Notes: a model not told the origin generated them from the letters alone. A DNA stretch of 64,000 nt from Myxococcales bacterium (GCA_009692535.1 SHYZ01000001.1:15360-79359); one strand, 5' to 3'; positions 29,787-52,613 are shown, counted from the first letter of the stretch. A program made the numbers and translations.

Positions 29787-30518
29787 ATGACCGCCTCGCT
29801 CAGTCTTGTTGGCCAGTCCGGCCGCCTTATGGCGGCACTGCTCTTTGCCTTCGCGGTCGCGCTCCTCCCGGCCTCCGCTTCGGCGCAACCTGTGGAGCCC
29901 CCGACCGGCGCCAAGGCTCCCGAAGCCGACCCGCCAGAGGTGGCGTCGGCCGACACGACCGCGCCGGCCGGTGCCCCCGAGACAGCGTCGGCGAACATCC
30001 GGTTGCGTCGGCTCGAGCAGCGGGTGCAGGCGCTCAAGGAGCAGGCTTGGCGCATCAAGGCCCGCGTCGGCATGCTCAAGGAGGCGGTCCTCGGCGGCAG
30101 CATCGGCGCGCGCGCATCGATCGCGCATGAGAACAAAATGGGCGGCTCGTTCCGTCTCGTGAAGCTCGTCTACGCGCTCGACGGCACCCAGATCTTCTCG
30201 CGCACCGATGACAGCGGGAAGCTGCACGACCAAAAGCGCTTCGACATTCTCTCGGGGCCGATCGCGCCGGGCAACCACACGTTGTCGGTGCTGCTGCTCT
30301 ACCGCGGCCACGGCTACGGCGTGTTCGAGTACCTCAAGCAGTACAAGTTCACGGTGCGCTCGAGCCACACCGTCGTCATCGCCGAGGGGAAGCAGACCCA
30401 GGTGACCGTCGTCGGCTATGAGCGCGGCGGCGTCACGACTCCGCTCGAAAAGCGCCCCGCCGTCGACTTCAAGGTCAACTACGCGACCGACCGTCCCGCC
30501 GGCGCCAAGGGGAGGTAG
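29787..30518 (+). CDS. Secreted protein (coiled-coil segment + beta-rich domain), first gene of the Glt/Nfs-like operon
   Basis: Signal peptide MAALLFAFAVALLPASASA/QP and a heptad-like segment RLRRLEQRVQALKEQAWRIKARV. The stop overlaps the next GTG start by 1 nt. Confidence 0.65.
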   Translation: MTASLSLVGQSGRLMAALLFAFAVALLPASASAQPVEPPTGAKAPEADPPEVASADTTAPAGAPETASANIRLRRLEQRVQALKEQAWRIKARVGMLKEAVLGGSIGARASIAHENKMGGSFRLVKLVYALDGTQIFSRTDDSGKLHDQKRFDILSGPIAPGNHTLSVLLLYRGHGYGVFEYLKQYKFTVRSSHTVVIAEGKQTQVTVVGYERGGVTTPLEKRPAVDFKVNYATDRPAGAKGR

Positions 30519-33019
30519 TGCAGGCGCGACCCCACGTACGCACCGTCGCGCAGTCGACGGGCTTCGCGACCTTGGTCGCGACGGGCGGCGTGACGCGCCT
30601 TGCATCGTTGGGCGCGACGGGCCTCGCGACGCTGGTCGCCTTTGGGCTCGCCACGCTTTTCGCCGGCACCGCGCATGGCGACGCTTCCAACGCGATCGCC
30701 CGCAAGGTGCTCGCGCTCGAAGCCGACGCGCAAAACCTCGAGGACGGACTCTCCGCGCCGCTGGTCGACCGCTCCGGCGAGGACGAGGTGTCGCGGCGCT
30801 TCATCGAGGCCGAGGTCGCGTACGAGACCGGCAACTACGAGGACGCGTCGCTGCTGCTGTTCGACATCGTCGAGAAGCACAAGGGCTACCGCCGCTACCG
30901 ACAGGCGGTGTTCTATCTCGCCGACTCGCTGTTCCAGAAGCGGGACTACATCACTGCGCGCGAGGGCTTTCGTCGCCTGGTCTACGAGCGCGGTCCCGAG
31001 GACGTGCTCTATGCGCGCGCGCTTGAGCGATTGCTCGAGCTGTCGCTCGCGCTCAAGGACGACACCGACGTGCCCGACGTGCTCACACGACTCGGGCGGA
31101 TTCCCGAGGGGCAACAGCTGCCCTCGGCGCCGTACATCCGCGGCAAGTACGAGTATTTCCGCGGCAACCATGACACCGCGATCACCTCGCTCGAGCTCAT
31201 CCCGCGCTCGTCGCAGTACTACATCCGGGCGCGTTACTTTCTCGGCGGCAGCCATGTCGCCAAGGCGTACGACGCGAGTCGCGACAACCTGATCGCGCCG
31301 GAGTCGCTCGCCGCCGCCGCCAAGATCTTCCACGAGCTGGTGCAGGAGTCGGCGAAGACCAAGAACGATCAGCACATCCTCGAGCTGGCGCACCTCACGC
31401 TCGGCGAGATTCACTACGCGCGAGAGCAGCCGGCGGAGGCGATTCAGGAGTACCTCGCGATCTCCCGGCGCTCGCCGCTGTTCCCGACCGCGCTGATCGA
31501 GGTCACGCACGTCTACGTGCAGGCGCGGGACTTCGCCAAGGCGCTGCGCGCGCTCGAGTTACTCGAGATGGCCACCGGCTCGGCCTGCGACAAGAAGGAC
31601 GACAAGATCCCGGCCGCGCTGGTGCAACCCGACCTCTGCATCCTCAAGGGGAACCTCTCGATCCGGAAGGCGCAGGCACAAGCGCAGATCGCCGAGTCGG
31701 GCATCGAGGCGTACCGCAACGCGATGGCGATCTTCTCGACCACGCGCGACGTGTTCGAGAAGCCGCGCAAGCACCTCGAGGAGCTGCTCGCGAAGAACCA
31801 CGACCCGAAGCAGTTTTTCGCCCAGGTCACCGATGAGAATCCGACGGTCTTCGATGTCGACAGCGACCTGTTTCAGGTGGCGCGACGGTATGTGCGCGAG
31901 GAGGCCGAGGTCGGTCGCGTCGTGCATGTGACGACCGACCTCGTGAAGATCCGCGCCGAGCTGACCGAGGCCCGGCTGATGCTCGATCGACTCGACCGCA
32001 CGGTGCAGTCGGAGTCGCGCGTGCAAGTCTTCCCGAGCCTCGCGCGGCTGCGTGAGCGCGCGAACGACCTCGTCTCGTCGGCAGTCGGCCTGCGGCAGCA
32101 GGTGGTGGTCGCGACCAGCGCGCTCATCGCGAAGTACGCAGATGCGGCCGAGCGCGCCGAGCACGCCAAGCTGCTCGCCGCGCGGCAGACGATCACGAAG
32201 GAGCTCGGGCTCATCCGTGGCGACACGGCCTCGTCGGCCGACCGGATCAAGAAGGCGCGCTCGCGCTACTCGACCCTCGACAGCCACGCCAACGAGCTGG
32301 AGGTCTTCGTCGGCAGCCTCGAGGCGGAGATCGTCGCGATCGACAAGTTCTACCGCGACACCAAGGGAAACGAGCGCTACCCACAGGATCAGTTCGACCG
32401 CGACCTGCACGACATCCGCGAGCTCGTCGTCGCGTTGCAGAAGGAACTCGAGACGCTCCGCCGCGAGTCCGCGATGGGCGCCGATCAAGCCGGCACCGGC
32501 GACGAACTCGCCGCCGAGGACCGGAACCTCGAGGGCCGGCTCGACCGCACGCTGCGCGAGGAGGGCGCTCTCACGCGACGGCTGCTCGGGCGCATGAGAT
32601 CCAGCGATCGCGCGCGCGCCGAGCAACTGCTCGAATTGCTCGACCGGCTCGACGGTGTCGACGCGATCGTCGCGCGGGCGAACACCCGGATCGATCGCGT
32701 GCTCGACTCCGAATTGGCCGAGGTCAAGACGCTCATCGTCGAGGAGCAGGCGCGCGTGACGACCTACCAGAAGGAACTCGCGGCCACTGAGGCGGAGAAC
32801 CTCGACCTCGGCTCGCGCGTGATCTACTCGTCGTTCCAGAGCGTGTCGAAGCGCTTCTACGACATCACGGTGCGCGCCGATGTCGGCATGGTCGACGTGG
32901 GCTGGGCGCGACGCGAAGAGGCGGAGGGCGCGTACACGAAGGTGCAGTCGGACTCGGCGCGCGAGAAGCGGCTGCTGCGAAATGACTTCAAGGACGTGCT
33001 CGAGGAGGTGGGCCAGTGA
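30518..33019 (+). CDS. Periplasmic TPR + long coiled-coil protein (GltC/NfsC-like position)
   Basis: 833 aa with an N-terminal hydrophobic segment. TPR-like repeats include YETGNYEDASLLLFDIV and YYIRARYFLGGSHVAK. The C-terminal ~450 aa is heptad-rich. There is a GTGA overlap with the next gene. Confidence 0.7.
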   Translation: MQARPHVRTVAQSTGFATLVATGGVTRLASLGATGLATLVAFGLATLFAGTAHGDASNAIARKVLALEADAQNLEDGLSAPLVDRSGEDEVSRRFIEAEVAYETGNYEDASLLLFDIVEKHKGYRRYRQAVFYLADSLFQKRDYITAREGFRRLVYERGPEDVLYARALERLLELSLALKDDTDVPDVLTRLGRIPEGQQLPSAPYIRGKYEYFRGNHDTAITSLELIPRSSQYYIRARYFLGGSHVAKAYDASRDNLIAPESLAAAAKIFHELVQESAKTKNDQHILELAHLTLGEIHYAREQPAEAIQEYLAISRRSPLFPTALIEVTHVYVQARDFAKALRALELLEMATGSACDKKDDKIPAALVQPDLCILKGNLSIRKAQAQAQIAESGIEAYRNAMAIFSTTRDVFEKPRKHLEELLAKNHDPKQFFAQVTDENPTVFDVDSDLFQVARRYVREEAEVGRVVHVTTDLVKIRAELTEARLMLDRLDRTVQSESRVQVFPSLARLRERANDLVSSAVGLRQQVVVATSALIAKYADAAERAEHAKLLAARQTITKELGLIRGDTASSADRIKKARSRYSTLDSHANELEVFVGSLEAEIVAIDKFYRDTKGNERYPQDQFDRDLHDIRELVVALQKELETLRRESAMGADQAGTGDELAAEDRNLEGRLDRTLREEGALTRRLLGRMRSSDRARAEQLLELLDRLDGVDAIVARANTRIDRVLDSELAEVKTLIVEEQARVTTYQKELAATEAENLDLGSRVIYSSFQSVSKRFYDITVRADVGMVDVGWARREEAEGAYTKVQSDSAREKRLLRNDFKDVLEEVGQ

Positions 33020-36000
33020 GCCGCGCGCACAGGCTTCCCGTCGCGCTGCTCACGCTCGCGCTCACCGCCGGCGGCGCGCTGATGTCGTCACGCGGCCCGC
33101 ACGCCAACCCGCTGCCGCCGCGCGCCCCGGCCGACTCGGACGCGCTGCTCCAGCAACTCAACGAGCACGAGGCCGACGCGCTCCGCTACGAGACGCTCTC
33201 CGTCGAGCACCTGGCGCGGCTGCGCGAGCTCCTCGCCCGCGAGTACACCAAACGCAACCGCGCGATCAACGAACGGCACCGCAAGACGTGCGGACTCTCC
33301 AACGACGACTACCGCAAGCGGCACACCGAGGGGATGGCGCTGCTCGAGGACTTCCTCGTGCGCTATCCCGACGACGCCAAGTGGACTCCCGACGTAATGT
33401 TCCGGCTCGCGGAGCTGCACACCGACGAAGCGGGCATCAAATACGACCTCGCCGTTGGCCAGCGCCCCTGCTCCGATCTCGAGGAGGCCGCTGCCGCCGA
33501 GCCTGCCGAGGGCGACGGGCCGAGTGGGCCGGACTACACCAAGGCGATCGACCTCTACCGCGAGATCGTACGGCGCTGGCCGAGCTACCGACAGATCGAC
33601 TTTGTGCTCTACGCGCTGGCGTACTACCAGGGCAAGCAGCCGAGCGACGACAGCATCGTGCAGGAACGGAACGCTGCGCGCGCCGAGCTCGCGCACCAGG
33701 CGCTCATCTGTTTCAACAAGTCGGTGCGGACGTGCCGCGTCTACCGCGGGGCCCCCCTGACCTGCTCACAGACGAGCTGGTTCAGCGGTGTCTTGGTGAT
33801 GGAGCAGGACGGCGCGTTCCGGCAGTGCCGCGTGAACACCGGGGATCCGACGACCTGCGGCATGCCACTGACCGGGCAGGCCGTAGCGCTGCACGACGGG
33901 CGCTATCGCAACTGTCAATTCGTCGACGGCAAGCCGATGAGCTGCGACGGTGGCGCGTCGGGATCCTTCCCGGTGTCGCTCGACGCAATCGCCGAGCCGC
34001 CGCTCGACCTCGACGTCTGCTCGTCGCGCCAACTCGCGCGCGGTGCGCTGGTCGACGACTACCTCGCGGTCGACGAGGCCGGGGACCCGGTCTGCCTCAA
34101 GCAGAACCCCTGCTCGACAAACAACCCGTTTGCGCCGCTTGCGGACATCTACGCCGGCTGCACGCCCGCCCGCGCCGGCTCGACGCTGGTCGACGAGGTC
34201 TGGCTGCGCGTGGGCGAGTCGCACTTCTTCGGACGCTGCGAGCTGCCGCAGGCCGCGGCCGCCTACGGGCGCGTTGCGCGTGAGGACTCGGAGTACTTCG
34301 ACGCCGCGCTCTATCCGCTCGGCTGGACCTACTACCGCCTGAACCGCTACGCGAAGGCGCTCGAGTACTTCGATCGCTACGTTAAACTCTCCGACAAGCT
34401 CGAGACCGAGACGGGGGAGGGCTTCGCCTTCCGCGACCAGGCGGTGAAGTACCTCGCGATCTCGTTCTCGGATGCCTGGCCGGATCCCGATCCGGCACGC
34501 TCCGAGTCGAGCCCCAACCCGGCGAGCGCGCTTCGGCGCATCCAGCCATTCTACGCGGCGCGGCTCACAGAACGGCACGTGCGCGATGTCTACGAGGAGC
34601 TCGGCGACACGATCCTCTCGAACTCGGGACGGCCGGCCTCGGACAACATCATGACGTCGGACATGGAGTTCGGCTTCCGCAAGTCGGTTGAGTCCTGGCG
34701 CGTCGCGCTCACCAATTGGCCAATCCACAAGCGCAACCCGATCGTCCACAAGAAGGTCGTCGACGCGCTCGGCACGATCGTCGCCGCCGCACGCAAGGAC
34801 GAGCAGACCGCCACCGAGACGCTGGCCACGGCGACGACGCCAGCCGGGCGCGCCACCGCGCAGGAGGAACTCACCGCCGCGCAGGCCAAGGTGCGCAGCG
34901 CCACCGACGACGAGGTCGGCGAGCGGCAGCGGATCGCCGACCTCTATCGCGAGGGGGGCACCTGGTACGCGTCGAACGTGATGGACCGCGAGGCGATGGC
35001 GATCGCGCGCTCGCTCGCAGAAGACTCGCTCAAGCAGGCCGCCCTCGAGGTGAACCGCAAGGCCAAGGGCGAGCGCGAGGCGTGGGAAGCGCCGATCCGT
35101 GCGCGGCTCGAGCAGGCGGTGACCCTCGCAGCGGGTGGGCAGGCTGCGCTGCGCGCGATGAGTGGCGGGGAGATCGCTGCGCTCAAGGAGACCGTCGAGG
35201 AGCAGTTCGACAGCGAGCGGATGCGGCTGCAGGATGACCCGGGTCGCCGTGCCTACCAGAAGACCTATCTCGCGGCGGCTTCGATGTACCAGCGCTTCGT
35301 CGAGACCTACCCGACCTCGGCCGACGTGGCGCAGTTCACGTTCAACATGGCCGGCTGCTTCTTCTTTGCCGACAAATTCGACGACGCGATCGCCAACTAC
35401 CGCTGGGTGCGCGATGCGCGCGCGCTGGTCGAGCCGGCGGTCTGGGAGGACGCGGTGCGCCGCGTCGTCGAGTCGCGCCGGCTCGCCGTGGCGCAGCAAC
35501 TCGCGCGACGCCGCGACTGCGAGCAGACGCTCACGTCGCAAGGCGCGACCGCCGCGATCGCGGGCGAGCGTTGCGCGGGCTTCCTCGAGCAGCCGGCCGA
35601 TCTCACCGCGACCAGCCTGAAGGAGTGCCCGAGCGCGGTAGCCAACGCGATCACCTCGGTCGCCGAGACCGCCGACGGTGTCGAGGTCACGGTCCGCGCG
35701 CCCGATGACCAGGGTGCAGACGACATTCGGGTGCGGTCGCGCAAGCTCGCCGATCGGGCGTCGACCAGCGACCTGCAGGCGCAGGATCCCGCGACCACCG
35801 GCAAGTGCCCCATCGTGGTGGCCGGCACCACCGTCACCGTTACCGACATCGAGGGCGGCGCCACGCTTGCCGTCAGGCCGCTCGATCCGACCAAACTCGG
35901 GCTGCTCCGGCTGGTCTCGCGTCCGCTCGCGATCCCGCAGGAGGTGCCGCCGCTCTACGCCGACCTGCAGGGCGCGTATGACGAGTACGCGCAGTTCGTC

Positions 36001-38037
36001 CCGAACAATCCGGCCGCGGCCGAGTTCGCGCTCAAGGCGGCGATGATCGCCTACCGCCATATGCACCTCGACGGTCCCGGCGGCGCGGTCGAGCGCTTCC
36101 GCAAGATTGTCGGGCCGGCCGAGGCAGGCGGGTTCTGCAAGAGCGAAGAGGCCGTGCAGGCGAAGGAGGGTCTCCTCGTCGTCTACGCCTCGCGCGGCCA
36201 GAATGATCTCTACTTCAAGACCAACGAGGCGTTCGCTTCCGCCGCGTGCGGCGCGAGCGAAGACGACGCGCGCGTCGCACGTCAGGACAACGCGTCGCGT
36301 GAGTTCAACCTCGCGGTCGATCAACTCGACGAGGCGCTCACGATCAAGGAAGCAGGCAACGCGCTCTTGCGTCAGGGGATGCAGACCGAGGCGCAGGAAA
36401 AGTTCAAGGCGTCGCAGGAGCGCTTCCTCGCCGCAGCGCAGGCGTTCTACACGCTCTACGCCTGCCAGCGTCGCGAGGCCGGGAAGTGCCTGCCAATGTC
36501 GAACGACGATCCCGGCAAGGCGTACGCGCTCTACGCCTCGGCGACCGCGTACACCGAGGGCGGTCGGCCCAAGACCGGCATCGCGCTCTACCAGGTGCTG
36601 CTCACCGAGCAGCGCGCCTCCACGTTCTACGTCGAGTCGGTCTTCTATGTAGCGAAGGCGCACGAGGCCTCGTTCGACTTTAAGCGCGCCGGCGATCTCT
36701 ACCTCGAGTTCTTCAAGATCGCGTCCGGCCCGTCGCCAAACTTCCGCCGTCGCAACATGCGCGGCGAGCCCAGCTACGATCAGGACAAGCGCTCCGACCC
36801 CGGCTTCGACCTGCCGACCTTCAAGCTCGACTCGCTCTACAACGCCGCGCTGATGCGCGAGCTCGATCGCGACTATCGCGGCGCCGTGGACCTCTACCGC
36901 CAGTACGCGAGCGCGCCCGGCTCCGATCAGACCCGTGGCAGCGAGGCCTTCCTCCGCATCGCCGGCATCTACGAAAAGAACGGCGCGTACGACGACATGG
37001 TGAACGCCTTCGCCGCGTGGCGCCGGAACTACGTCCCCGATCCGGCCGACGGCAAGGTGCGCCTCAACTGGGTGCGCTCCTTCCACCTCGTCTCCACCGG
37101 CGTCGGCGGCAAGAAGGCCAAGGACCAGGCCGCAGCACAGCGCCGCACGATCGACGCGTTCTTCGAGGCGTACGGCCGCAAGCCCGACGGCGACGCCGAC
37201 GAGGAGAACGACGAGCCCGGGACGGTCCCGACCGGCGCCGAGCGCCTCGCGCGCGAGTGGGCCGGCGAGGCGCAGTACCGCCTCTCGACACGGGCGGCCG
37301 CGGGCGGCATCGCAAAGTTCAAGTTCAAGTGGGCCGGGAAGATCATCCCCGACGGCAAGCGCGTCACGCCCGAGCTCGCACGCGCCAACTACGACGCCTC
37401 CATCTCCGCGCTCATGGCGACGAACGCCACGACCCTCAGGGAGTACTTCAAGGTGCTCCGCTTCTCGAGCACCTGGGGCCTCTCGGCCAAGGTCGCGATT
37501 GGCGACACCTCGTTCATGGCGGGCCAGAAGCTGGTCGACACGCCGCTGCCTGACGAGGTCGTGCGCTTCGCGAAAGAGAACCCCGACGTCGACGTCGAGG
37601 CGCTGTTCCGTGAGCGCTTCGAGTGCGTCGCGTCGACAGACTTCTGGGACCCCGACGACCTCGAGCGCCAAAAGTTTTGCGGCTGCTCGAACGAGCGATT
37701 CCAGGGGCGCGGCGACACTTGCGAGGCCGAGCTCGGCGTCCTCACCGAGCAGGATCGCGACGGCGACAAGCGGGTCGACTACCTCGATGACGACGCCGAC
37801 GGCAACGGCGAGAACGACGTGGCCGGCGCGCTCTCACGTGGCGAGCCGAAGCCGCGGCGCAAGGGTTACTATCCGTACGGTGCCAAGCGGTTCTGGTCGG
37901 AGGTCGTCGCCGACGCCAAAGAGGTCGGCATCGCCAACGAGTTCACGCGCCACGCGGAAGAGCAGCTGAACCTGCTCGACCCGGAGAAGTACCCGGTCCA
38001 GCGTGCGGTGATCACCGAGCCGGTGCTCGAGCCGTAA
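33016..38037 (+). CDS. Giant periplasmic TPR-repeat protein (GltD/AgmU / NfsD-like)
   Basis: 1673 aa with signal peptide LLTLALTAGGALMS. TPR-like helical repeats run throughout (YALAYYQG, WTYYRLNRYAKALEYFDRYV, FNMAGCFFFADKFDDAIANYRWV, YNAALMRELDRDYRGAVDLYRQY). The antisense 1301-aa ORF is low-complexity R/G/A/V. Confidence 0.75.
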   Translation: MSRAHRLPVALLTLALTAGGALMSSRGPHANPLPPRAPADSDALLQQLNEHEADALRYETLSVEHLARLRELLAREYTKRNRAINERHRKTCGLSNDDYRKRHTEGMALLEDFLVRYPDDAKWTPDVMFRLAELHTDEAGIKYDLAVGQRPCSDLEEAAAAEPAEGDGPSGPDYTKAIDLYREIVRRWPSYRQIDFVLYALAYYQGKQPSDDSIVQERNAARAELAHQALICFNKSVRTCRVYRGAPLTCSQTSWFSGVLVMEQDGAFRQCRVNTGDPTTCGMPLTGQAVALHDGRYRNCQFVDGKPMSCDGGASGSFPVSLDAIAEPPLDLDVCSSRQLARGALVDDYLAVDEAGDPVCLKQNPCSTNNPFAPLADIYAGCTPARAGSTLVDEVWLRVGESHFFGRCELPQAAAAYGRVAREDSEYFDAALYPLGWTYYRLNRYAKALEYFDRYVKLSDKLETETGEGFAFRDQAVKYLAISFSDAWPDPDPARSESSPNPASALRRIQPFYAARLTERHVRDVYEELGDTILSNSGRPASDNIMTSDMEFGFRKSVESWRVALTNWPIHKRNPIVHKKVVDALGTIVAAARKDEQTATETLATATTPAGRATAQEELTAAQAKVRSATDDEVGERQRIADLYREGGTWYASNVMDREAMAIARSLAEDSLKQAALEVNRKAKGEREAWEAPIRARLEQAVTLAAGGQAALRAMSGGEIAALKETVEEQFDSERMRLQDDPGRRAYQKTYLAAASMYQRFVETYPTSADVAQFTFNMAGCFFFADKFDDAIANYRWVRDARALVEPAVWEDAVRRVVESRRLAVAQQLARRRDCEQTLTSQGATAAIAGERCAGFLEQPADLTATSLKECPSAVANAITSVAETADGVEVTVRAPDDQGADDIRVRSRKLADRASTSDLQAQDPATTGKCPIVVAGTTVTVTDIEGGATLAVRPLDPTKLGLLRLVSRPLAIPQEVPPLYADLQGAYDEYAQFVPNNPAAAEFALKAAMIAYRHMHLDGPGGAVERFRKIVGPAEAGGFCKSEEAVQAKEGLLVVYASRGQNDLYFKTNEAFASAACGASEDDARVARQDNASREFNLAVDQLDEALTIKEAGNALLRQGMQTEAQEKFKASQERFLAAAQAFYTLYACQRREAGKCLPMSNDDPGKAYALYASATAYTEGGRPKTGIALYQVLLTEQRASTFYVESVFYVAKAHEASFDFKRAGDLYLEFFKIASGPSPNFRRRNMRGEPSYDQDKRSDPGFDLPTFKLDSLYNAALMRELDRDYRGAVDLYRQYASAPGSDQTRGSEAFLRIAGIYEKNGAYDDMVNAFAAWRRNYVPDPADGKVRLNWVRSFHLVSTGVGGKKAKDQAAAQRRTIDAFFEAYGRKPDGDADEENDEPGTVPTGAERLAREWAGEAQYRLSTRAAAGGIAKFKFKWAGKIIPDGKRVTPELARANYDASISALMATNATTLREYFKVLRFSSTWGLSAKVAIGDTSFMAGQKLVDTPLPDEVVRFAKENPDVDVEALFRERFECVASTDFWDPDDLERQKFCGCSNERFQGRGDTCEAELGVLTEQDRDGDKRVDYLDDDADGNGENDVAGALSRGEPKPRRKGYYPYGAKRFWSEVVADAKEVGIANEFTRHAEEQLNLLDPEKYPVQRAVITEPVLEP

Positions 38038-38066
38038 CGAGGCCGTAACGAAGCCATGACCAAGCC

Positions 38067-41137: not shown

Positions 41138-41205
41138 TCCGTTGTCACCACTTCGGGCGGGCGAGCGACCCCTGCATGAACGTCCGGTAGCCCTCCGGCC
41201 ACTAA

Positions 41206-41234
41206 TTGACACTGCCCGGACCGCTTCGTAAGAT
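41206..41234 (+). promoter_or_regulatory. Near-consensus sigma70-type promoter between the Glt-like and polysaccharide gene sets
   Basis: TTGACA (41206-41211), a 17-nt spacer, then TAAGAT (41229-41234). A GGAGG sequence lies about 7 nt before the TTG start at 41275. Confidence 0.55.
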
Positions 41235-41274
41235 GGCGACCTCTTTCGGGAGAGAACGACCCGGAGGCTTTTGA

Positions 41275-43927: not shown

Positions 43928-43931
43928 CGAC

Positions 43932-45077: not shown

Positions 45078-46057
45078 CGGCGGCCCCCCTCCTCTTCGTC
45101 ACGGGCGCCACCGGCTGCGTCGGTCGCGCGGTCATCGCGCGCGCTCTCGCGGCCGGCTGGCGCGTGCGCGGCCTCGCACGCCACGCGCTCCCGAGTGGCG
45201 ATCCGCTGCTCGTGGGCCTCGACCTCCGCGTTGGCAGCGTCACCGACGAGCACGCCGTGCGCGAGTCGGCCGCCGGCGCGCGCGCAATCGTGCACCTCGC
45301 GGCATGGGTGCACGCGGAGCCGCGCGACTCGGCAGAGCACGACGAGCTTCACCGCACGATCGTCGACGGCACAGCCCACGTCGCCCGCGCCGCCGCCGCC
45401 GAAGGAGCGCGACTCGTAAACGCCTCGACGGTCGCGGTCTACGGCAGTTGGCTCCCCTCGCCCTGCGACGAGGCGACGCCGCCCGCCGCCGAGTCCCCGT
45501 ACGCCCGCGCCAAACTCGCGGCCGAAGCTGCCGCCGCGCTGGTGCCGGGCGCCACGTCGCTCCGCATCGCGCTGGTCCATGGGCCGCACGACCGCGGTAA
45601 CCTGCTGCGGCTGCTCCGCGCGATCGATCGCGGCCTCGCCTTCGTCGTCGGAGACGGCACGAATCGCAAATCGCTGGTCTACGTCGAGCACCTCGCTGCG
45701 CGCGTTCTTCGCTTGATCGAAGCGGATCGCGCCGGCGGCATCTTCATCGCGGCCGACGCGCCAGCGCCGACACAGCATGAACTCGTCGTCGCACTCTCCC
45801 GCGCGCTCGGCCGGCGCCCGCCGCCGCGCTTGCCCCGCGCGCCGCTCGAGTGGGCCGGCGCTGCGGTCGACCTCGCGCGTCGAGCGGTCCGCGCCCAGGG
45901 CGGCTCGTGGCGGCAGCGCGTCAAGAAGTTGGCCGCGCCGACTGAGTTTCGCGGCGACCGACTCGACGCGCTGCTCGGCTACCAGCCCGAGCTGACGCTA
46001 GACGAGTCACTTCAGCGCACGGTCGCGTGGTGGAAACACCAGGAACTCCGGCCATGA
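45074..46057 (+). CDS. NAD-dependent epimerase/dehydratase (extended SDR)
   Basis: ATGA overlap with the upstream gene. Motifs are FVTGATGCVGRAV and the YxxxK element YARAKLAAE. Confidence 0.85.
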   Translation: MTAAPLLFVTGATGCVGRAVIARALAAGWRVRGLARHALPSGDPLLVGLDLRVGSVTDEHAVRESAAGARAIVHLAAWVHAEPRDSAEHDELHRTIVDGTAHVARAAAAEGARLVNASTVAVYGSWLPSPCDEATPPAAESPYARAKLAAEAAAALVPGATSLRIALVHGPHDRGNLLRLLRAIDRGLAFVVGDGTNRKSLVYVEHLAARVLRLIEADRAGGIFIAADAPAPTQHELVVALSRALGRRPPPRLPRAPLEWAGAAVDLARRAVRAQGGSWRQRVKKLAAPTEFRGDRLDALLGYQPELTLDESLQRTVAWWKHQELRP

Positions 46058-47160
46058 CGGCCCCGCTCACCCTCCTGCTTCTGGTGGCGACCACCGTCGG
46101 CGCCCTGCTCGGTCTCGGCGGCGCCGCGCTCATGCTCTCGCGCGCCGGCCGTGGCCGCATTACCGTCGACGAGCCCGACCTGCGCCGGCTCCACACCACC
46201 CCCACGCCGCGCGGTGGCGGCCTCGGCATCGTCGTCGCCGGCCTCCTCGCCAGCCTCGTCGCCCTCTGCCTCGCACCATCGTCGGCCGACGCGCGACTCG
46301 TCGCGATCGTGGTCTGGGCGTGGGCATTGCCGAACGGCCTCCTCGGCATCCTCGACGACCGCCGCCCACTGCCCGCGCGCGCCAAGCTCACGGTGCAAGT
46401 AGCGGCCGCGCTCTGCGCGACGGGACTCGGGCTCCGACTCGACCTGCTCGCACTGCCGCCGTTTCCCGCGCTCGCGTTGCCGGTCGCACTCGCCTGGTTC
46501 GCCAGCGTCGTCTGGCTGATCTGGATCGCCAACGGCTTCAACTTCATGGACGGCATGGACGCACTCGCGGCTCCGTCGGGCGCGCTCTTCGCCAGCGGCC
46601 TCACCCTGCTCGCGCTCGCCGCGAACCTGCCGCTCCTCGCCATCACGACCGCATGCACCGGCGGCGCCCTGCTCGGCTTCCTTCGCTACAACTGGCCGCC
46701 CGCGCGCATCTTCATGGGCGACGGCGGGAGCCTCTTCGCCGGAGCACTCTTCGGCGGCAGCGCGCTCGCGCTCGCAACACCCGCCGCCGGCTCGATGCCA
46801 CTCGCCGCGCCGCTGCTGCTGCTCGGCCCGTTCATCTGGGACACCACGTTCACCCTGCTCCGTCGCGCCGTGCGCCGAGAGCCGCTCATGACCGCGCACC
46901 GCACGCACCTCTACCAGCGGCTCGTGCTCGCCGGCTGGCCGCAGTCACGCGTCCGCGCGCTCTACCTCCTGCTCGCCCTCGCCGGCCTCGCCGCCGCGCT
47001 CGCCCTCGCCGTGCCCCAAGCCAACTCTCGTCCGCACGGACTCCACCTGCTCGTCCTCCTCGGCGCCGTCACCGCAGCCGGCGCGCTCGCAATCGGCACG
47101 CACCTCGTCGAGCGGCGCGCCGTCGCGTCCTCCCCCACGTCCCTCGAGCCGCGCCGATGA
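46054..47160 (+). CDS. Polyprenyl-phosphate N-acetylhexosamine-1-phosphate transferase (MraY/WecA family initiating enzyme)
   Basis: ATGA overlap with the upstream gene. About 10 TM helices. Motifs are LGILDD, NGFNFMDGMDALA and FMGDGGSLFAG. Confidence 0.85.
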   Translation: MTAPLTLLLLVATTVGALLGLGGAALMLSRAGRGRITVDEPDLRRLHTTPTPRGGGLGIVVAGLLASLVALCLAPSSADARLVAIVVWAWALPNGLLGILDDRRPLPARAKLTVQVAAALCATGLGLRLDLLALPPFPALALPVALAWFASVVWLIWIANGFNFMDGMDALAAPSGALFASGLTLLALAANLPLLAITTACTGGALLGFLRYNWPPARIFMGDGGSLFAGALFGGSALALATPAAGSMPLAAPLLLLGPFIWDTTFTLLRRAVRREPLMTAHRTHLYQRLVLAGWPQSRVRALYLLLALAGLAAALALAVPQANSRPHGLHLLVLLGAVTAAGALAIGTHLVERRAVASSPTSLEPRR

Positions 47161-49484
47161 GCTCGCCCCCGCCCGGCCGCAGCCTCCGCATTGCCGCCGG
47201 CGTCGTGCTCATCGTGCTCGTGGTCGGTGCGCCACTCGCCATCGGCACCGTGCACGACGTCACCCGCGCCGTCGCGTTCTCCCTCTGCGCACTCGCGCTC
47301 GCGCTCACGCTGCTCGAGCGTCTCGTCGCCGGCAAACGCTTCCCGGTCACCATCCCGCTCGTCGCACTCGGTGCCGCGCTGCTCTTCACCGCGCTGCAGC
47401 TCGTGCCGCTCCCCCGCGACACGCTCGCGTGGCTCTCCCCCGCCGCGCACGACATCTTCCAAGCGACGCTCGCCGACCGCGGCGCCCACGCGATCTCACT
47501 CGACCCCTCGGCGACGCTCCGCGAGCTCATCAAGCTCGGCGCCTACGTCGCCTTCTTCGCCGCCGCCTGCACCTACGCCTCACGCCCGCACCGGCGCCGA
47601 CAGCTGCTCCTCGCCGTCGCTGGCGTCTCCGCCCTCGTCGCGACCATCGGCCTCATCCAGGCCGCCACCGGCACGCCGCGCATTCTCTTTTTCTACGAGC
47701 CGGTCGCCGCATGGGAAGCGCTCGTGCGCGGCACCTTCGTCAACTCCAACCACTTCGCCGCACTCATGTGCCTCGGCGCGCCCTGCGCACTCGTGCTCGG
47801 CTTGCGCGAGCCGCGCCTGCGCTTCTTCGCGTTCGCCGCGACACTCGTCATCAACGTCGCCGTCGTGCTCTCACTCTCGCGCGCCGGCATCGTCGCTGCG
47901 CTGCTTGGTCAAGCGATGCTCTTCACGCTCGACCGCTTGCAGCTCTCGCGCGGCGCCGACTGGGTGCGCGACCGACAGAGCGCACGCGCGGCACTCGCGA
48001 TCGTCGTCGTCCTCGGCCTCGGCATCAGCGCCGTCGTCGGCGCGAGCCGTCTGCGCCCCGAGCTCGCTCGCTCACAATCGGAGCTCGCCAACCCCTACTC
48101 CAAGATCAACGTGTGGAAGCGGGGCGCCGAGGTCGTCTGGCAGTACCCGTGGACCGGCGTAGGACGCGGCGCATTCGAGCACGCCTTTACGCAAGTCGAC
48201 GACCGTGGCGGACAGCAGCGTCATCCCTGGATCGAGAACGGCTACCTTCAGAGCGCGGCCGACTTCGGCGTGCCGGCGGCGGTGCTGCTGTTCCTCCTCG
48301 CAGGATGGGGCGCGGTGCTCGCCTTCCGCCGTCTCGACGACGACCCGCTCGCGGTTGGGGCGCTCACCGGCATCGTCGCGCTCGGGCTGCAGCAAGGAGC
48401 CGACTTCGCCGTCGAGCTGCCCGGCGTCGCACTCCCCGCGCTCGCGGTGCTCGCCACCCTCTTCGGCAAGCGCACGAGCGAGGTCGAGTCCGGTCGGCGT
48501 CGTCTCGCGGTACCGCGCGTCGCCCTCGCGCTGCCGGTCGCGCTCGTCATCGGCGTCTTCCTCGTGCAGCGCGTCCCGAGTGCGGACGAGGATCTCGCCA
48601 CACTCATGCGCGCCGTGCGCGACCCCAGCGTCTCCACCGCCGAGGTGCTCCGCCTCGGCGTCGCCGCACGCGAGCGCCACCCCGCACACGCCTTCCTCCA
48701 CGCAGTCGTTGGCGAGCGACTCGCGCGCGAGCGCCACCCCGACACGATGGCGTGGCTCTCCGACGCCATGTTCCTCAACCCGTCCCACCCGGCCGCGCAC
48801 CTCATGGCCGCCGAGGTCCTCGCCGCCACCGGGCGAAAGACGCAAGCGCTCGTCGAGTACAAAGCCGCCGCCGTCGGCGCGCGCGACCCCGCCGAGATCT
48901 GGCAGGTCGCACGCCGCCGCTTTCCTGACGTCGCGGAGCTCCTGCTCGCCACCCCTGCCACGCCACGCCATCGACGAATTCTCGCCGGCTGGCTCGCCGA
49001 GACCGGCAAGCCCGAGCAGGCGGAGCGCGCCTTCCTCGCGCTGCTCGAGCTTGCCCCCGGCGACGTGCGCGCCCACCGCCAGCTCGCGCTCCTGGCGCTC
49101 GCGCGCAACGACGCCGCAGCCGCCGCGACCCGTGTCGACCAGCTGCTCGCACTCGACCAGACCCCACCCTCGCTCCACATCGCCGTGCGGCAGCGCACCA
49201 CGGCCGGCGATCATGCTGGTGCGGCTAAGCTCCTCGACGAGACCGGCCTCACCTTCTCGCGCGAGACCTTCGACCTCGAGCTCGCCCTCGCCACAGCCCT
49301 CGCTACGGCCGCCCGCCCCGACGACGCCCGCGTGCGCCTCGACGCCCTCGCCCGCACCCACCCGCTCGACCGCCCCGCACGAGTCCGACTGCACGAGACC
49401 CTCGCCGAGCTTGAACGCGGCGCGGGCCACGAACACCAATCCAAGTGGCACCTCGAGCAAGCGGCGCGGCTGCGCTCGCCATGA
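47157..49484 (+). CDS. O-antigen-ligase/Wzy_C-family membrane protein fused to a C-terminal TPR domain
   Basis: ATGA overlap with the upstream gene. The first ~480 aa are polytopic, with NSNHFAALM and LSLSRAGIVAALLG. The last ~290 aa are TPR-like (AHLMAAEVLAATGRKTQALVEYKAA, AERAFLALLELAPGDVRAHRQLALLAL). Confidence 0.7.
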   Translation: MSSPPPGRSLRIAAGVVLIVLVVGAPLAIGTVHDVTRAVAFSLCALALALTLLERLVAGKRFPVTIPLVALGAALLFTALQLVPLPRDTLAWLSPAAHDIFQATLADRGAHAISLDPSATLRELIKLGAYVAFFAAACTYASRPHRRRQLLLAVAGVSALVATIGLIQAATGTPRILFFYEPVAAWEALVRGTFVNSNHFAALMCLGAPCALVLGLREPRLRFFAFAATLVINVAVVLSLSRAGIVAALLGQAMLFTLDRLQLSRGADWVRDRQSARAALAIVVVLGLGISAVVGASRLRPELARSQSELANPYSKINVWKRGAEVVWQYPWTGVGRGAFEHAFTQVDDRGGQQRHPWIENGYLQSAADFGVPAAVLLFLLAGWGAVLAFRRLDDDPLAVGALTGIVALGLQQGADFAVELPGVALPALAVLATLFGKRTSEVESGRRRLAVPRVALALPVALVIGVFLVQRVPSADEDLATLMRAVRDPSVSTAEVLRLGVAARERHPAHAFLHAVVGERLARERHPDTMAWLSDAMFLNPSHPAAHLMAAEVLAATGRKTQALVEYKAAAVGARDPAEIWQVARRRFPDVAELLLATPATPRHRRILAGWLAETGKPEQAERAFLALLELAPGDVRAHRQLALLALARNDAAAAATRVDQLLALDQTPPSLHIAVRQRTTAGDHAGAAKLLDETGLTFSRETFDLELALATALATAARPDDARVRLDALARTHPLDRPARVRLHETLAELERGAGHEHQSKWHLEQAARLRSP

Positions 49485-49503
49485 GGGCCAAGGATGGCGC
49501 CCA

Positions 49504-51405
49504 ATGACCTCTGCTAGGCTCTCGCACGCGATGTGGCACTGGCTCGGCTCGCACCGGGCACCGCTCTCGGCGGTGGCCAACATCCTCATCCTCACCGCCG
49601 CGTACGTCGGCGCGTTCCTGCTGCGCTTTGACTTCGCGCTGCCGCGTTATTTTCAGGGGCTGCTGCTCGTCACGCTCCCCGCGAGCGTCGGCATCCACTA
49701 CCTCTCCTTCCTCACCTTCAACATCACGCGGGGCTGGTGGCGCTATGTCGGCGTCGGCGACTTCCTCTCCGCGGTCAAGGCCGCCGGTGCCGGTGCGCTG
49801 GCGATGTCGGCGTGGGTGCTGGTGCTGCACCGCGGCGCCAACTTCCCGCGCTCGGTCATCCTGCTGAACTTCATCCTCGTCGTGGGACTCACGATCGGCG
49901 TGCGCCTCGCCGTGCGCCTCTGGCGTCAGGTGCCGCACGCGCACGCTCCGGGCGATCGCAAGCGGCTGCTCATCGTCGGCGCGGGCGACACCGGCGAGGC
50001 GCTGCTGCGCGAAATCCGCCAGAGCCCCCGCCTCGCCTACCAAGTCGTCGCGTTCGTCGACGACGAACCCTCCAAGCGGGGCGCGTACATCAACGGCGTG
50101 CCGGTAGCCGACACTTCCGAGGCAATTCCCGACGTCGTGCGCCGCCTGCGCATCGCCGAGATCGTCGTCGCGACCCCGTCAGCCGCCGGCAACGAGATGC
50201 GCCGCATCACCGCGCGCTGCCGCGAGAGCGGCGTGCCGTTCCGCGTGATGCCCGCGACCTGGGAGGTGCTCTCGGGCAAAGCCGGCCTCGGCGCGGCGCG
50301 CGAAGTGGACATCCACGATCTCCTGCGCCGCCCGCGCGTCGAGCTCGACACCGTCGGCATCGGCCGCTTCCTCCTCGGCAAGCGCGTGCTCGTCACTGGC
50401 GCCGCGGGTTCGATCGGCGCCGAGATCTGCCGCCAGGTGCTCCGCTTTTCCCCCGCGCAGCTCGTCTGCCTCGACCACGACGAGAACGCGCTCTTCTACC
50501 TCGGCCGCGCGCTCGAGCCGGTCACCGGCAACCACGAGGTCCGCTACCGCCTCGCCGACATCACCGACGAGCCGCGCCTCGACGCGATCTTCCGCACCTT
50601 CCAACCCGAGGTCGTGTTCCACGCCGCTGCGCACAAGCACGTGCCGATGATCGAGGCCAACGCCGTCGAGGGGATGCGCAACAACGTCTTCGGCACGCAG
50701 CTCGTCGCCACGCTCGCCGGTCGACACGAGGCCGAGGCGTTCGTGCTGATCTCGACCGACAAGGCGGTGAACCCGTCGTCGCTGATGGGCGCGTCGAAGC
50801 GGATCGCCGAGCTCGTGGTTCGCACGCTGCCGTTCACCACGCGCTACACCACCGTGCGCTTCGGCAACGTGCTCGGCTCGCAGGGGAGCGTCGTGCCGCT
50901 GCTCAAGGAGCAGATCGCGCAGGGCGGTCCGGTCACGATCACCCACCCCGAGATGCGCCGCTATTTCATGACCATCCCCGAGGCGGTCGAGCTCGTGATC
51001 CAGGCCGCCGCGATGGGAAAGAAGGACGAGATCTTCCTGCTCGACATGGGCGAGCCGGTGAAAATCGTCGACCTCGCGACCGACCTCATTCAGCTCTCGG
51101 GGCTGCGCCCCGGCATCGACATCGAGCTTCGTTTCACCGGCATCCGCCCCGGCGAGAAGCTCTACGAGGAGCTCTACACCGACGCTGAGGAGTCCGACCG
51201 CACCACGCACCCGAAGATCCTCGCGGCGCGGCACGCCCACCTCGACCCCGCGCGATTCTCAACGCAGCTCGCCGAGCTCGCCGCCGCAGTGGCCGCTTGC
51301 GATGACGCGTGGGTGCGCCGGCTCGTGCCGCAGCTCGTCCCCGAGTACCGCTTGCGCGATCCGGCGGACAACGTGATCCCAATCTCCGCCGCGCGCAGCT
51401 TGTGA
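49504..51405 (+). CDS. Membrane-anchored nucleotide-sugar 4,6-dehydratase/epimerase (CapD/WbpM/PglF family)
   Basis: Four N-terminal TM helices. Motifs are LIVGAGDTGEAL, VLVTGAAGSIGAEI, FHAAAHKHVPM and STDKAVNPSSLMGASKR. Confidence 0.9.
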   Translation: MTSARLSHAMWHWLGSHRAPLSAVANILILTAAYVGAFLLRFDFALPRYFQGLLLVTLPASVGIHYLSFLTFNITRGWWRYVGVGDFLSAVKAAGAGALAMSAWVLVLHRGANFPRSVILLNFILVVGLTIGVRLAVRLWRQVPHAHAPGDRKRLLIVGAGDTGEALLREIRQSPRLAYQVVAFVDDEPSKRGAYINGVPVADTSEAIPDVVRRLRIAEIVVATPSAAGNEMRRITARCRESGVPFRVMPATWEVLSGKAGLGAAREVDIHDLLRRPRVELDTVGIGRFLLGKRVLVTGAAGSIGAEICRQVLRFSPAQLVCLDHDENALFYLGRALEPVTGNHEVRYRLADITDEPRLDAIFRTFQPEVVFHAAAHKHVPMIEANAVEGMRNNVFGTQLVATLAGRHEAEAFVLISTDKAVNPSSLMGASKRIAELVVRTLPFTTRYTTVRFGNVLGSQGSVVPLLKEQIAQGGPVTITHPEMRRYFMTIPEAVELVIQAAAMGKKDEIFLLDMGEPVKIVDLATDLIQLSGLRPGIDIELRFTGIRPGEKLYEELYTDAEESDRTTHPKILAARHAHLDPARFSTQLAELAAAVAACDDAWVRRLVPQLVPEYRLRDPADNVIPISAARSL

Positions 51406-52613
51406 AGGTCCTCTGCTTCGTCGACGCGCCCCACCGACTCGCGGGCGCCCAGCGGAGCCTGCTCGCTGCGCTGTCGGGTCTGCCGGCCGAAGGCGTCACG
51501 CCGCGCGTGGTCTTTCCCGCCGAGGGCCGCTGCGTCGACGCCTATCGTGCCGCGGGCGTCGACTGCGTCGTGCTCCCCGCGCCCGCCGCGCTGCTCGAGT
51601 TCGGCAAGGCGCACCTGCGCGCCGGCAAGCTCGCGCAAGCTCGCGTGCTCGTCACCGCCTGCGTGCCCTACGCGCGCGCCCTCGCGCGGCTCGCCCGGGC
51701 GTGGGGCGCCGACCTCCTCCACTTCAACACGCCCCGCGGCATCCTCGCCGCCGGCCTCGCCGCGCGGCTCGTGCAACGCCCGACTGTGTTGCACCTGCGC
51801 GGCGCGGTGCCGTTCGGCGGGCCGCTCTGGTTCGCGGCGCAGGCACTCGCCGATCGCATCGTGCTGGTGGCGCACGCACTCGAGCCGGAAGTCGGGCGTC
51901 CCTTCCGACGACGCACGCGCGTCGTCTACAACGGCGTGACGATCCCCGAGCTGTCCACGCACGCCAACGCCCGCACCGACGCCCGCGCCGCGCTCACCGC
52001 CAGGTTCGGCGTGCCGCGTGAAGGCGCTCTCTTCGTCGCGCTCTCCTCGCTGGTGCCGTTCAAGGGCCTGCACCACCTGCTCGACGCCGCCTGCCGCACT
52101 CGCGACGCTGGCCTCGACGCGCACTACCTCCTCGCCGGCTCGAGCGACGACGCGCGCTACACCGACTGGCTCACGCGACGCCGCGACACGCTTGGCCTCG
52201 GCAGCGCCGTGACCTTCGCTGGCTTCGTCGGCGAGCCGGCCACACTCCTCGCCGGCGCCGACGCGCTGGTGCTCCCCTCCATCGAGCGCGAACAACTCGA
52301 CCTCGACGGCACCACAGTCGACGTGCGCGGTAACGAGGGCTTGCCGCGAAGCGTGCTCGAAGCGATGGCGCACCGGCTCCCGGTCATCGCCTCACGCCTC
52401 GCCGGCGCAGTCGAAGAGGTCGAGGAGGGCGAGAGCGGACTGCTGGTTCCGCCCGGCGATCCACGCGCGCTCGCCGACGCGCTGCTCACGCTGGCGCGCG
52501 ATGCGAGCTTCCGCACTCGGGCCGGCGCGCGCGGCCGCGAGCTCGCCGAGACCCGCTTTAGCGTCGGAGCTTCCGCGCGCGGCCTCGCAGCCGTATTCCG
52601 CGAGCTCCATTGA
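51402..52613 (+). CDS. Glycosyltransferase family 4
   Basis: GTGA overlap with the upstream gene. The EX7E region NEGLPRSVLEAMAHRLPVIASRLAGAVEEVEEGESGLLV carries an unusual insertion (EREQLDLDGTTVDVRG) just before it. Confidence 0.8.
   Translation: MKVLCFVDAPHRLAGAQRSLLAALSGLPAEGVTPRVVFPAEGRCVDAYRAAGVDCVVLPAPAALLEFGKAHLRAGKLAQARVLVTACVPYARALARLARAWGADLLHFNTPRGILAAGLAARLVQRPTVLHLRGAVPFGGPLWFAAQALADRIVLVAHALEPEVGRPFRRRTRVVYNGVTIPELSTHANARTDARAALTARFGVPREGALFVALSSLVPFKGLHHLLDAACRTRDAGLDAHYLLAGSSDDARYTDWLTRRRDTLGLGSAVTFAGFVGEPATLLAGADALVLPSIEREQLDLDGTTVDVRGNEGLPRSVLEAMAHRLPVIASRLAGAVEEVEEGESGLLVPPGDPRALADALLTLARDASFRTRAGARGRELAETRFSVGASARGLAAVFRELH

Follow-up and report, generated by a model that had tools for sequence, protein, structure and literature searches.

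In a 64,000-nt stretch of DNA from a Myxococcales bacterium (GCA_009692535.1, SHYZ01000001.1:15360-79359; ~70% G+C; the whole stretch is called the window below), we found a Glt/Nfs-like envelope module physically joined to the export unit of a polysaccharide locus. The two halves lie in an array of exactly 15 genes, all on the plus strand, at positions 29787-52613 (G1-G15, Table 1). Genes G1-G6 contribute the Glt-like half, whereas the half from G7 onward encodes an outer-membrane β-barrel (G8), a short outer-membrane polysaccharide export (OPX) lipoprotein (G9) and polysaccharide biosynthesis enzymes. The physical link between the halves is real, ancient and recurrent. Each half belongs to a known kind; what is new is the joined Glt-like/OPX-barrel supercluster, of which, as the first-pass annotation of this DNA had supposed, we found no description in the literature searched, the coverage of which was incomplete. 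Its conserved core consists of G1, the GltC/D/E/F/G-like genes, in some loci a G6 paralog, then G7, the barrel, the OPX gene, a Wzy_C-tetratricopeptide repeat (TPR) gene and a PglF-like gene, and the supercluster belongs to an uncultured Haliangiales/Kofleriaceae-related lineage of the Myxococcota. We propose that the halves are functionally coupled, in that a TonB-like transducer with a TPR scaffold would act on the barrel/OPX translocon or the polymer of this translocon, a reading whose chances we judge to be about even.

Lists of raw open reading frames (ORFs) are useless at such a G+C content, and genes were called by third-position GC and frame analysis followed by start-codon context. 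This analysis confirmed that the 15 plus-strand genes overlap or are at most 30 nt apart except at 41138-41274, and no credible minus-strand gene was found among them. The 14 junctions measure, in order, -1, -4, +29, -4, +9, +137, +22, +15, +4, -4, -4, -4, +19 and -4 nt. Seven of them are start/stop overlaps of 1 or 4 nt, which are typical of translational coupling, and the barrel gene G8 ends 15 nt before the OPX gene G9. The proposed promoter in the 137-nt gap between G6 and G7 was also recovered: TTGACA-17-TAAGAT at 41206-41234 matches 10 of 12 positions and is the sole sigma-70-like match within 29.4-44 kb, where shuffled sequences give an expectation of 0.6 matches per region. No plus-strand terminator-like site was found in this gap. 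A GGAGG motif is located 7 nt upstream of the TTG start codon of G7 at 41275. In relatives, the position of the gap is occupied by a second G6 paralog, by rml genes or by inserted genes. Separate promoters are probable for the G1-G6 half and the half from G7 onward, and the two would form a supercluster, not a single obligate operon.

The Glt/Nfs-like character of the first half is most evident in G6, a bitopic inner-membrane protein of the GltG/GltJ type. A cytoplasmic N-domain of G6 is followed by one transmembrane (TM) helix and by a periplasmic spacer rich in Pro/Lys and Gly, and the protein ends in a TonB-type C-terminal domain. It matches the NCBIfam model gliding_GltG with an E-value of 3.6e-27 (95 bits, below the equivalog cutoff of 650), the alignment of residues 18-438 with model positions 205-632 covering nearly the whole protein. 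G6 passes the AgmX/PglI C-terminal domain model NF033768 (60.9 bits, cutoff 40), and among PDB entries its family profile finds TonB C-terminal domains (E 8e-5). The Pfam FHA domain was not detected in G6. In the TM helix, the motif S165-x3-H169 is invariant in 33 homologs; it resembles the SHLS motif of TonB and TolA, which couples these proteins to ExbB/TolQ.

Genes G2-G4 encode TPR proteins whose size and position fit GltC, GltD and GltE. G2 weakly matches gliding_GltC (E 3.5e-16, 59 bits, cutoff 450) in addition to Pfam TPR models, is colinear in relatives and represents a candidate connector to the outer membrane. The match of G4 to the NCBIfam GltE model is very weak (E 3.3e-4, 19.7 bits, cutoff 225), with a homolog in locus L083 reaching E 5.9e-6. 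NCBIfam models were scanned leniently, at E<=10, for G1, G3, G5, G7 and G8, and at E<=0.01 for the other array proteins. Even at the lenient threshold G3 matched no Glt model; its positional counterparts in relatives are ~1200-1300 aa long. The small secreted protein G5 has no family match in Pfam or in the lenient NCBIfam scan, and its C-terminus is a near-invariant [AS]-P-F-COOH (KAPF in 72 of 87 homologs). The gene order TPR-TPR-TPR-small secreted-GltG-like is that of nfsC-D-E-F-G and gltD-E-F-G. As judged from these similarities and from the gene order, G1-G6 would represent an envelope transducer module of the 'core' type, in the order GltC-D-E-F-G, and its Glt/Nfs-like nature agrees with the first-pass annotation. 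The further claim of that annotation that this half has no outer-membrane barrel of its own also holds, with no GltA/B/H/K, GltI or CglB-type gene detected in NCBIfam scans of the array proteins.

The first gene of the conserved module, G1, always directly follows obg, from which it is separated in the window by 199 nt. G1 has no Pfam or NCBIfam family and matches no Glt/Nfs model even at E<=10, and a profile search of the PDB returned no sequence relative, only generic helical-bundle and coiled-coil noise. The G1 family comprises 1383 representatives at 50% clustering; among related loci the median identity of G1 is 57%, compared with 63% for obg and 27-32% for the TPR proteins. The β-rich domain of G1 occurs as five repeats in longer proteins, P0420 (1636 aa) having TPR repeats as well, and is found together with FecR and PEGA domains in P0378. 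G1 is unlikely to be a hidden outer-membrane barrel, because its β-rich part spans only ~130 residues and is a repeated soluble-type domain in other proteins. In relatives, a second G6 paralog (~430 aa, ~30% identical) that likewise exceeds the cutoff for the AgmX/PglI C-terminal domain is found downstream of G6, so that the two resemble a GltG/GltJ tandem. This paralog is reduced to a 135-aa C-terminal remnant at L082:8717-9124 and is entirely lost in the window.

The export unit consists of G7, G8 and G9, and confirms the Wzp/OPX pair noted at first pass. G8 is the sole barrel of the array and is of the BBP2_2/Wzp type. Its AlphaFold2 model contains 18 long strands (predicted local distance difference test score (pLDDT) 86, predicted template modelling score 0.81), and the protein has a signal peptide, a C-terminal Phe and an N-terminal extension whose first ~50 mature residues are predicted to be disordered. 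Foldseek retrieved 18-strand porins and PgaA (4y25), and the Pfam domain BBP2_2 (PF10082) is found in distant G8 homologs. There are 40 detectable G8 homologs, many sharing contigs with the best G6 matches. One ENA contig of 24.7 kb encodes a G8 protein 97% identical to that of the window (P0121), and therefore the same or a sister population has been sampled independently. In the OPX lipoprotein G9, Cys33 follows a lipobox-like ...STAA/C sequence and the last residue is Phe. Its matches to the NCBIfam models EpsY and pepcterm_export are below the cutoffs, and its best PDB match is 9n9a, a 186-aa class-3 OPX protein (E 8.6e-38). In the alignment, the position of WzaB Arg106-Arg107 is taken by Arg-Ser in G9, which has its own Arg107-Arg108 seven residues upstream; the WzaB Arg-Arg contact motif is thus not claimed for G9.

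G7 directly precedes the barrel gene in all 13 related loci in which it was found. The public gene call (P0163, 174 aa) starts at a GTG at 41347 and is thus devoid of a signal peptide; we prefer the 198-aa form, because GGAGG precedes the TTG at 41275 and because homologs align across the N-terminal hydrophobic segment. The AlphaFold2 model of G7 has a pLDDT of 80 overall and of ~97 within its three-helix bundle. Neither a fold search nor a profile search against PDB sequences gave an informative match, both returning only unspecific hits to helical bundles or coiled coils. The G7 family comprises 219 proteins, all termed 'hypothetical'. In alignments, two Cys of the bundle are conserved, and the Pro-rich tail closes with SPF[VI] (SPFV in the window protein). 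Eight of 12 homologs end in [AS]-S-P-[FY]-[VI], akin to the [AS]-P-F-COOH of G5, and the two tails may be docking peptides for TPR grooves. One subfamily of class-3 OPX translocons would have G7 as its third component.

We compared 12 contexts in which G7 or G8 homologs are located on long contigs. In 11 of these, a G6-like gene is positioned directly upstream on the same strand and is followed by the G7-like, barrel and OPX genes; the small gene and the TPR genes are also upstream wherever the flank reaches far enough. The association holds down to 25-29% G8 identity, and synteny in other Myxococcota, which the first-pass annotation had proposed as a check, was thereby confirmed. The junction between the halves contains toxin-antitoxin genes in L081, rmlA/rmlC and an epimerase gene in L086, L087 and L090, and genes for cNMP-binding and FG-GAP proteins in L085. 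In L085 the only polysaccharide genes beside the Glt-like genes are G7-barrel-OPX, and those attached in L082 and L083 are only G7-barrel-OPX-G13-G14. Glycosyltransferase (GT) and sugar genes are variable among related clusters. In L081, genes for PIN/VapC, HTH_17, DUF433 and DUF2442 proteins on the opposite strand (L081:5029-7482) split the Glt-like module from a paralog-G7-barrel-OPX block.

A complementary search was anchored on G6, which has >550 full-length homologs at 36-50% identity, the named ones belonging to Kofleriaceae, Haliangiales or Myxococcales metagenome-assembled genomes. A scan with one genome per species gave 218 relatives, from which we kept 80 loci and compared them with the window proteins by tblastn; upstream counts refer to 51 loci with at least 9 kb upstream, and downstream counts to 38 genomes with at least 9 kb downstream. 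The order obg-G1-G2-G3-G4-G5-G6 is colinear on one strand in 51/51 loci, with obg counted upstream in 49/51. Homologs of G8, G9, G13 or Wzc are located within 10 kb downstream of the G6 ortholog in 13 of the 38 genomes, any polysaccharide marker within 10 kb in 17, and G7, G8 or G9 within 2.5 kb in 4. By a rough estimate, 13/38 far exceeds what chance would produce from the few OPX loci per genome. The association is thus asymmetric: G7/G8-type genes are nearly always found with the module, whereas the module is often found without them nearby.

In Kofleriaceae, G6 is commonly followed by cysC, cysN, cysD, the second G6 paralog, a hydrolase gene and a Ser/Thr kinase gene. OPX-Wzy_C/TPR-Wzc or PglF-like and DegT genes come after these in many loci, and most Kofleriaceae genomes have no export gene within 10 kb. 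The sulfate activation genes cysC/cysN/cysD are positioned between G6 and the paralog in L010, L013, L015, L023, L025-L027, L057, L069-L071 and L077; after the paralog, the same loci contain an alpha/beta hydrolase gene and a gene for a TPR-containing Ser/Thr kinase. All these genes, including cysC/cysN/cysD, were identified by eye from translations. It is conceivable that the cys genes would supply 3'-phosphoadenosine 5'-phosphosulfate for a sulfated polymer. The Ser/Thr kinase of the window (14919-17108) shares only generic kinase-domain similarity with the intervening kinase of Kofleriaceae and was rejected as its orthologue. Locus L063 (JBLMXA010000109.1) has the full G3-G6 arrangement and is labelled 'Acidobacteriota bacterium', probably a binning error, as all other loci come from Myxococcota or undetermined (Delta)proteobacteria. 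The obg/G1 junction is an unusually stable pairing of a housekeeping gene with an envelope machine.

Several observations weigh against functional coupling of the halves. They are separated by the promoter-like site and the 137-nt gap; 21 of the 38 genomes have no polysaccharide marker within 10 kb of the G6 ortholog; and in Kofleriaceae the cys genes, the hydrolase and the Ser/Thr kinase intervene. With 49/51, obg is an even more constant neighbour than the export genes, and therefore descent alone can keep neighbours at this locus. When matrices of pairwise identity were compared, G6 correlated with G7, G8, G9 and Wzc at r 0.76-0.89, and with obg at 0.82. In this comparison, a form of the co-variation check proposed at first pass, distances of the two halves thus co-vary no better than with obg; we rejected the mirror-tree test as functional evidence, because obg correlates equally and the test reports on co-inheritance only. 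The sole exception among the 12 contexts, L089, contains the most distant trio (27-30% identity), with ptsH/ptsI upstream and without Glt-like genes. G3, G4 and G5 are assigned as GltD, GltE and GltF by position only, and no motor (stator) gene of the MotA_ExbB/TolQ/ExbD or Agl type was found among the scanned genes of the window. The latter does not disqualify a Glt type, since in M. xanthus, too, the motor genes are located apart. Class-3 OPX, barrel and polysaccharide co-polymerase (PCP) proteins of M. xanthus form an export conduit which is described with only those three parts. The 'single functional unit' proposed in the first-pass annotation is, like the coupling, inferred from sequence, and between its halves the promoter-like site and, in relatives, unrelated genes are located.

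In L089, the G7-like, barrel and OPX genes (L089:3526-6058) are flanked by ptsH/ptsI on one side and by a peptide deformylase gene on the other; further polysaccharide genes or Glt-like genes are not in view. This type of trio may be a self-contained unit.

These observations bear on the main rival explanation, in which two independent systems came to lie side by side near obg in an ancestor and were kept as neighbours by slow rearrangement, the Glt-like module doing something unrelated to the adjacent polymer. Colinearity of obg-G1..G6 in all 51 loci demonstrates that neighbours are retained here regardless of function, and the separate promoter-like site at G7, the genes that intervene in most Kofleriaceae, the genomes without a nearby marker, a co-variation no stronger than with obg and the solitary trio of L089 all fit such a history. 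However, the junction has been remodelled repeatedly, by toxin-antitoxin, rml, FG-GAP and cys genes and by loss of the paralog, yet gene order and strand are kept in 11 of the 12 contexts. The barrel/OPX pair of L085 has stayed with the Glt-like genes though no other polysaccharide gene has, and sugar-nucleotide genes have been inserted between G6 and G7 in three lineages, mixing the halves. We argue for more than descent because order and strand persist through this remodelling and because the association is asymmetric; shared descent alone is possible, and we hold it to be a rather doubtful account.

It is considerably less probable that G1-G6, together with the second paralog in relatives, represent a gliding transducer and that the adjacent pathway makes an adhesive slime under the cell, so that coupling would occur at the level of motility and not of export mechanics. 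The Glt machine binds a still undefined slime polysaccharide (PMC3858216), a GltG/GltJ-like tandem pair exists in relatives, and by its record names the lineage belongs to the gliding Myxococcota. Yet no Glt score comes near its equivalog cutoff (95 vs 650 for GltG), GltA/B/H/K, GltI and CglB-type genes were not detected here, the carriers are known only as uncultured organisms, and Luciano 2011 (PMC3169522) concluded that motility requires more than the core genes. Least probable of all, and in our estimate very unlikely, is a passive scaffold. In this reading, G2-G4 and the G13 TPR domain would play the part that AlgK, PelB or the TPR domains of BcsC/PgaA have in synthase-dependent systems: they would steer or shield the periplasmic polymer and assemble the barrel, G6 being a TolA-like tether that transduces no energy. 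G8 does resemble barrels of the PgaA/AlgE type, whose usual partners are TPR proteins, the best match of the L083 homolog in the GltD position is to the Tol-Pal YbgF/CpoB repeat, and no stator gene is nearby, but the invariant S-x3-H motif and the TonB-type C-terminal domain of G6 are hallmarks of stator-coupled transducers, and the GltG-model match covers nearly all of G6.

Returning to functional coupling, the known machines suggest how it might work. GltG is a TonB/TolA-like protein that binds the AglR stator (PMC3169522). GltC binds GltA/B, the barrels of the outer membrane, at their disordered N-termini and so ties them to the periplasmic complex; GltC also takes up the C-terminus of GltF, and GltD forms a shaft. 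GltG/J are proposed to pull on a TonB-box of the GltA/B barrels. The Agl-Nfs machine transports the Exo polymer, which is secreted at fixed sites, and Glt and Nfs both associate with secreted polysaccharides (PMC3858216). By family assignment, the polymer encoded here would be built on undecaprenyl phosphate, with G12 starting the chain and GTs and sugar-modifying enzymes extending it; the Wzy-like protein D4 and/or G13 would polymerise it under the control of Wzc. The polymer may then exit via a composite G9/G8 translocon, as shown for M. xanthus WzaB/WzpB/WzcB. G6 could be energised by a proton-driven stator of the Tol/Exb/Agl type encoded elsewhere in the genome, with the periplasmic TPR proteins G2-G4 serving as shaft and connector and the small proteins G5 and G7 docking via their C-terminal [AS]-P-F tails. 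G2 and/or G7 would couple the shaft to G8, replacing the GltA/B/H barrels of the gliding machine. We propose G8 as the partner of GltC-like G2, because it is the only barrel available here and has a disordered N-terminus. As the output, the translocon may be gated, positioned or moved in an energy-dependent manner, or the polymer may be spread over the cell surface, analogous to the handling of the Exo polymer by Agl-Nfs. More tentatively, and with chances that we put well below even, the barrel/OPX translocon and the G7 adaptor would represent the outer-membrane module of a proton-motive-force-driven Glt-type machine that gates, moves or powers a Wzy-pathway pore. If so, the two machines of Myxococcus, the gliding machine associated with slime and the Nfs machine that handles Exo, would have diverged from an ancestral state close to this coupled arrangement.

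What the ancestral Glt core complex does has been a standing question since 2011 (PMC3169522). A second one is the way in which Glt/Nfs machines physically engage polysaccharides, the slime being still 'undefined' (PMC3858216). A core-like module tied to a defined OPX/barrel translocon offers a concrete, testable partner, with three candidate coupling parts: the GltC-like G2, G7 and the similar C-terminal tails. Two widespread uncharacterised protein families, G1 and G7, are flagged as well. If the proposed coupling is true, energy-dependent control would be added to models of Wzy-pathway export, which invoke only the PCP, OPX and porin components.

Table 1. Features of the supercluster and its surroundings; positions refer to the window unless a locus in a relative is named.
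Feature	Position	Strand	Description
obg	28589-29587	+	housekeeping GTPase, Pfam GTP1_OBG; upstream neighbour of G1-G6
G1	29787-30518	+	243 aa, secreted; signal peptide, coiled coil, β-rich C-terminal domain
G2	30518-33019	+	833-aa TPR protein, N-terminal signal or anchor; GltC-like
G3	33016-38037	+	1673-aa secreted TPR protein; GltD/NfsD position; Pfam TPR_6/TPR_14
G4	38067-39419	+	450-aa TPR protein; GltE/NfsE position; Pfam TPR_11/14/17
G5	39416-39763	+	115 aa, secreted, signal peptide; GltF/NfsF position
G6	39773-41137	+	454-aa GltG/GltJ-type bitopic inner-membrane protein
Intergenic gap G6-G7	41138-41274		137 nt; sigma-70-like promoter match and ribosome-binding site of G7
G7	41275-41871	+	198 aa, secreted; three-helix bundle at residues 56-154
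G8	41894-43270	+	458-aa outer-membrane 18-strand β-barrel, Wzp/EpsX/ExoB type
G9	43286-43927	+	213-aa class-3 (D1D2) OPX lipoprotein; Pfam Poly_export and one SLBB, no Wza_C
G10	43932-45077	+	GT4 glycosyltransferase
G11	45074-46057	+	NAD-dependent epimerase/dehydratase
G12	46054-47160	+	WecA/WbpL-type polyprenyl-phosphate N-acetylhexosamine-1-P transferase (PNPT); Glycos_transf_4 PF00953, 115 bits
G13	47157-49484	+	775-aa polytopic Wzy_C protein (O-antigen ligase/polymerase superfamily) with C-terminal periplasmic TPR domain
G14	49504-51405	+	membrane-anchored PglF/WbpM-type UDP-sugar 4,6-dehydratase; Pfam Polysacc_synt_2, E 6e-110
G15	51402-52613	+	GT1/GT4 glycosyltransferase
C-terminal tails	G5 39740-39763; G7 41850-41871	+	similar tails, one per half
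GT	52662-53888	-	downstream part of locus
NTP_transf_5	53854-54996	-	downstream part of locus
Wzc	54965-57238	-	PCP-2a/BY-kinase with Wzz and GNVR; one fused protein
D4	57307-58815	+	Wzy-like polymerase; NF033860, E 4e-5, sub-cutoff
Gfo/Idh/MocA-like oxidoreductase	58819-59868	-	identified by eye from translation
DegT aminotransferase	59820-60983	-	downstream part of locus
GT	60920-62314	-	identified by eye from translation
Epimerase/dehydratase	62158-63606	-	downstream part of locus
Second G6 paralogs	L081:7880-9205; L084:7870-9153		in relatives; cluster C2 in Kofleriaceae loci, e.g. L039:13487-14761

Beyond 52613, the polysaccharide locus extends to at least ~63.6 kb with genes on both strands. 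Wzc is not one of the 15 genes and is located outside them on the minus strand, in an NTP_transf_5-Wzc-DegT block whose opposite orientation is conserved in relatives. A Wzy-like polymerase, an initiating phosphoglycosyl transferase, a PCP and an OPX protein were all found, and the locus would by its gene content encode a Wzy/Wzc-dependent heteropolysaccharide pathway. The original assignment to a Wzx/Wzy pathway stands for these components and not for the flippase, with no Wzx (Polysacc_synt/MOP type) found within the 64-kb window; in L081 a Polysacc_synt gene is positioned at the end of the locus, and the flippase of the window may be located beyond 64000. G13 shows ~10 TM segments and matches Pfam Wzy_C (53.8 bits, cutoff 31.7) and TPR_19/16. 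No gene is found next to OPX more constantly than G13 (L004, L005, L012, L028, L038, L042, L082-84, L088, L091), and G14 homologs are found at 62-74% identity within related clusters. The G10-G12 block varies between lineages and is absent between OPX and G13 in relatives, the OPX gene being directly followed by the G13 homolog in L082, L083 and L084; this block is a lineage-specific insertion.

Upstream of G1, the window contains gatA, gatB, an MtnA-like gene and obg. Further upstream are genes for a WYL-domain protein (3378-4616), a DNA methyltransferase-like protein (12347-13654, minus strand) and a TPR/PEGA-domain protein followed by the Ser/Thr protein kinase, the ORFs of these last two overlapping (13691-17108). 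Several genes encoding 300-630-aa proteins without a Pfam family are located at 8637-10115, 10828-11787 and 19075-23611. Rfam and tRNA scans of the window gave no matches.

We compared the supercluster with known systems. Periplasmic TPR scaffolds are also found together with 16-18-strand polysaccharide barrels in AlgK/AlgE, PelB, BcsC and PgaA; here, in contrast, there is no synthase, the TPR proteins are encoded by separate Glt-type genes and the set includes a TonB-like protein. The class-3 OPX systems EpsY-EpsX, ExoA-ExoB and WzaB-WzpB-WzcB (PMC9601211, PMC9603273, PMC12819527) likewise combine a short OPX protein with an adjacent 18-strand barrel and a nearby Wzc-type PCP. They differ from our locus, in which one more conserved gene, G7, comes before the barrel in every case, a Glt-like module is attached to the pair and G9 has Arg-Ser where the WzaB Arg-Arg motif aligns. 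Term searches found no occurrence of Nfs, Glt or TonB in the OPX classification papers (PMC9601211, PMC9603273), and OPX only in a passing reference in the CglB paper (PMC9946355).

The Agl-Glt core complex (GltC, D, E, G and AglRQS; Luciano 2011, PMC3169522), which has been proposed to be a basal transport machine, shares with our array a minimal TPR set with one GltG-type protein, and neither contains the motility-specific GltA/B/H/I/K. The core clusters on record have AglRQS-like motor genes linked to them, whereas there is no motor gene within 64 kb here; the array in turn has a GltF-position gene, G1 and the attached OPX/barrel unit, and relatives have a second GltG/J-like paralog.

The first-pass label 'Exo-like' fits only the OPX/barrel part of our locus, which differs from Exo in its initiating enzyme and in its fused Wzc. 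M. xanthus ExoE is an initiating enzyme of the polyisoprenyl-phosphate hexose-1-phosphate transferase (PHPT) type, whereas a PNPT (PF00953) fills this role in our locus. The fused Wzc found here has the split pair ExoC/ExoD as its counterpart in the Exo pathway (PMC3858216). Together, the spore-coat assembly machine Agl-Nfs and the Exo pathway of M. xanthus (Wartel 2013, PMC3858216) nevertheless resemble the supercluster in the GltC-D-E-F-G-like set, the nfs gene order, the TonB-like GltG/NfsG-type protein, the association with a Wzc/OPX-exported polysaccharide and the pairing of a short OPX protein with an 18-strand barrel. Our array has no NfsA/B/H-type barrels, its similarity is far below the equivalog cutoffs and it contains two extra conserved genes, G1 and G7. 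The nfs and exo genes form separate loci in M. xanthus, whereas their counterparts here are contiguous.

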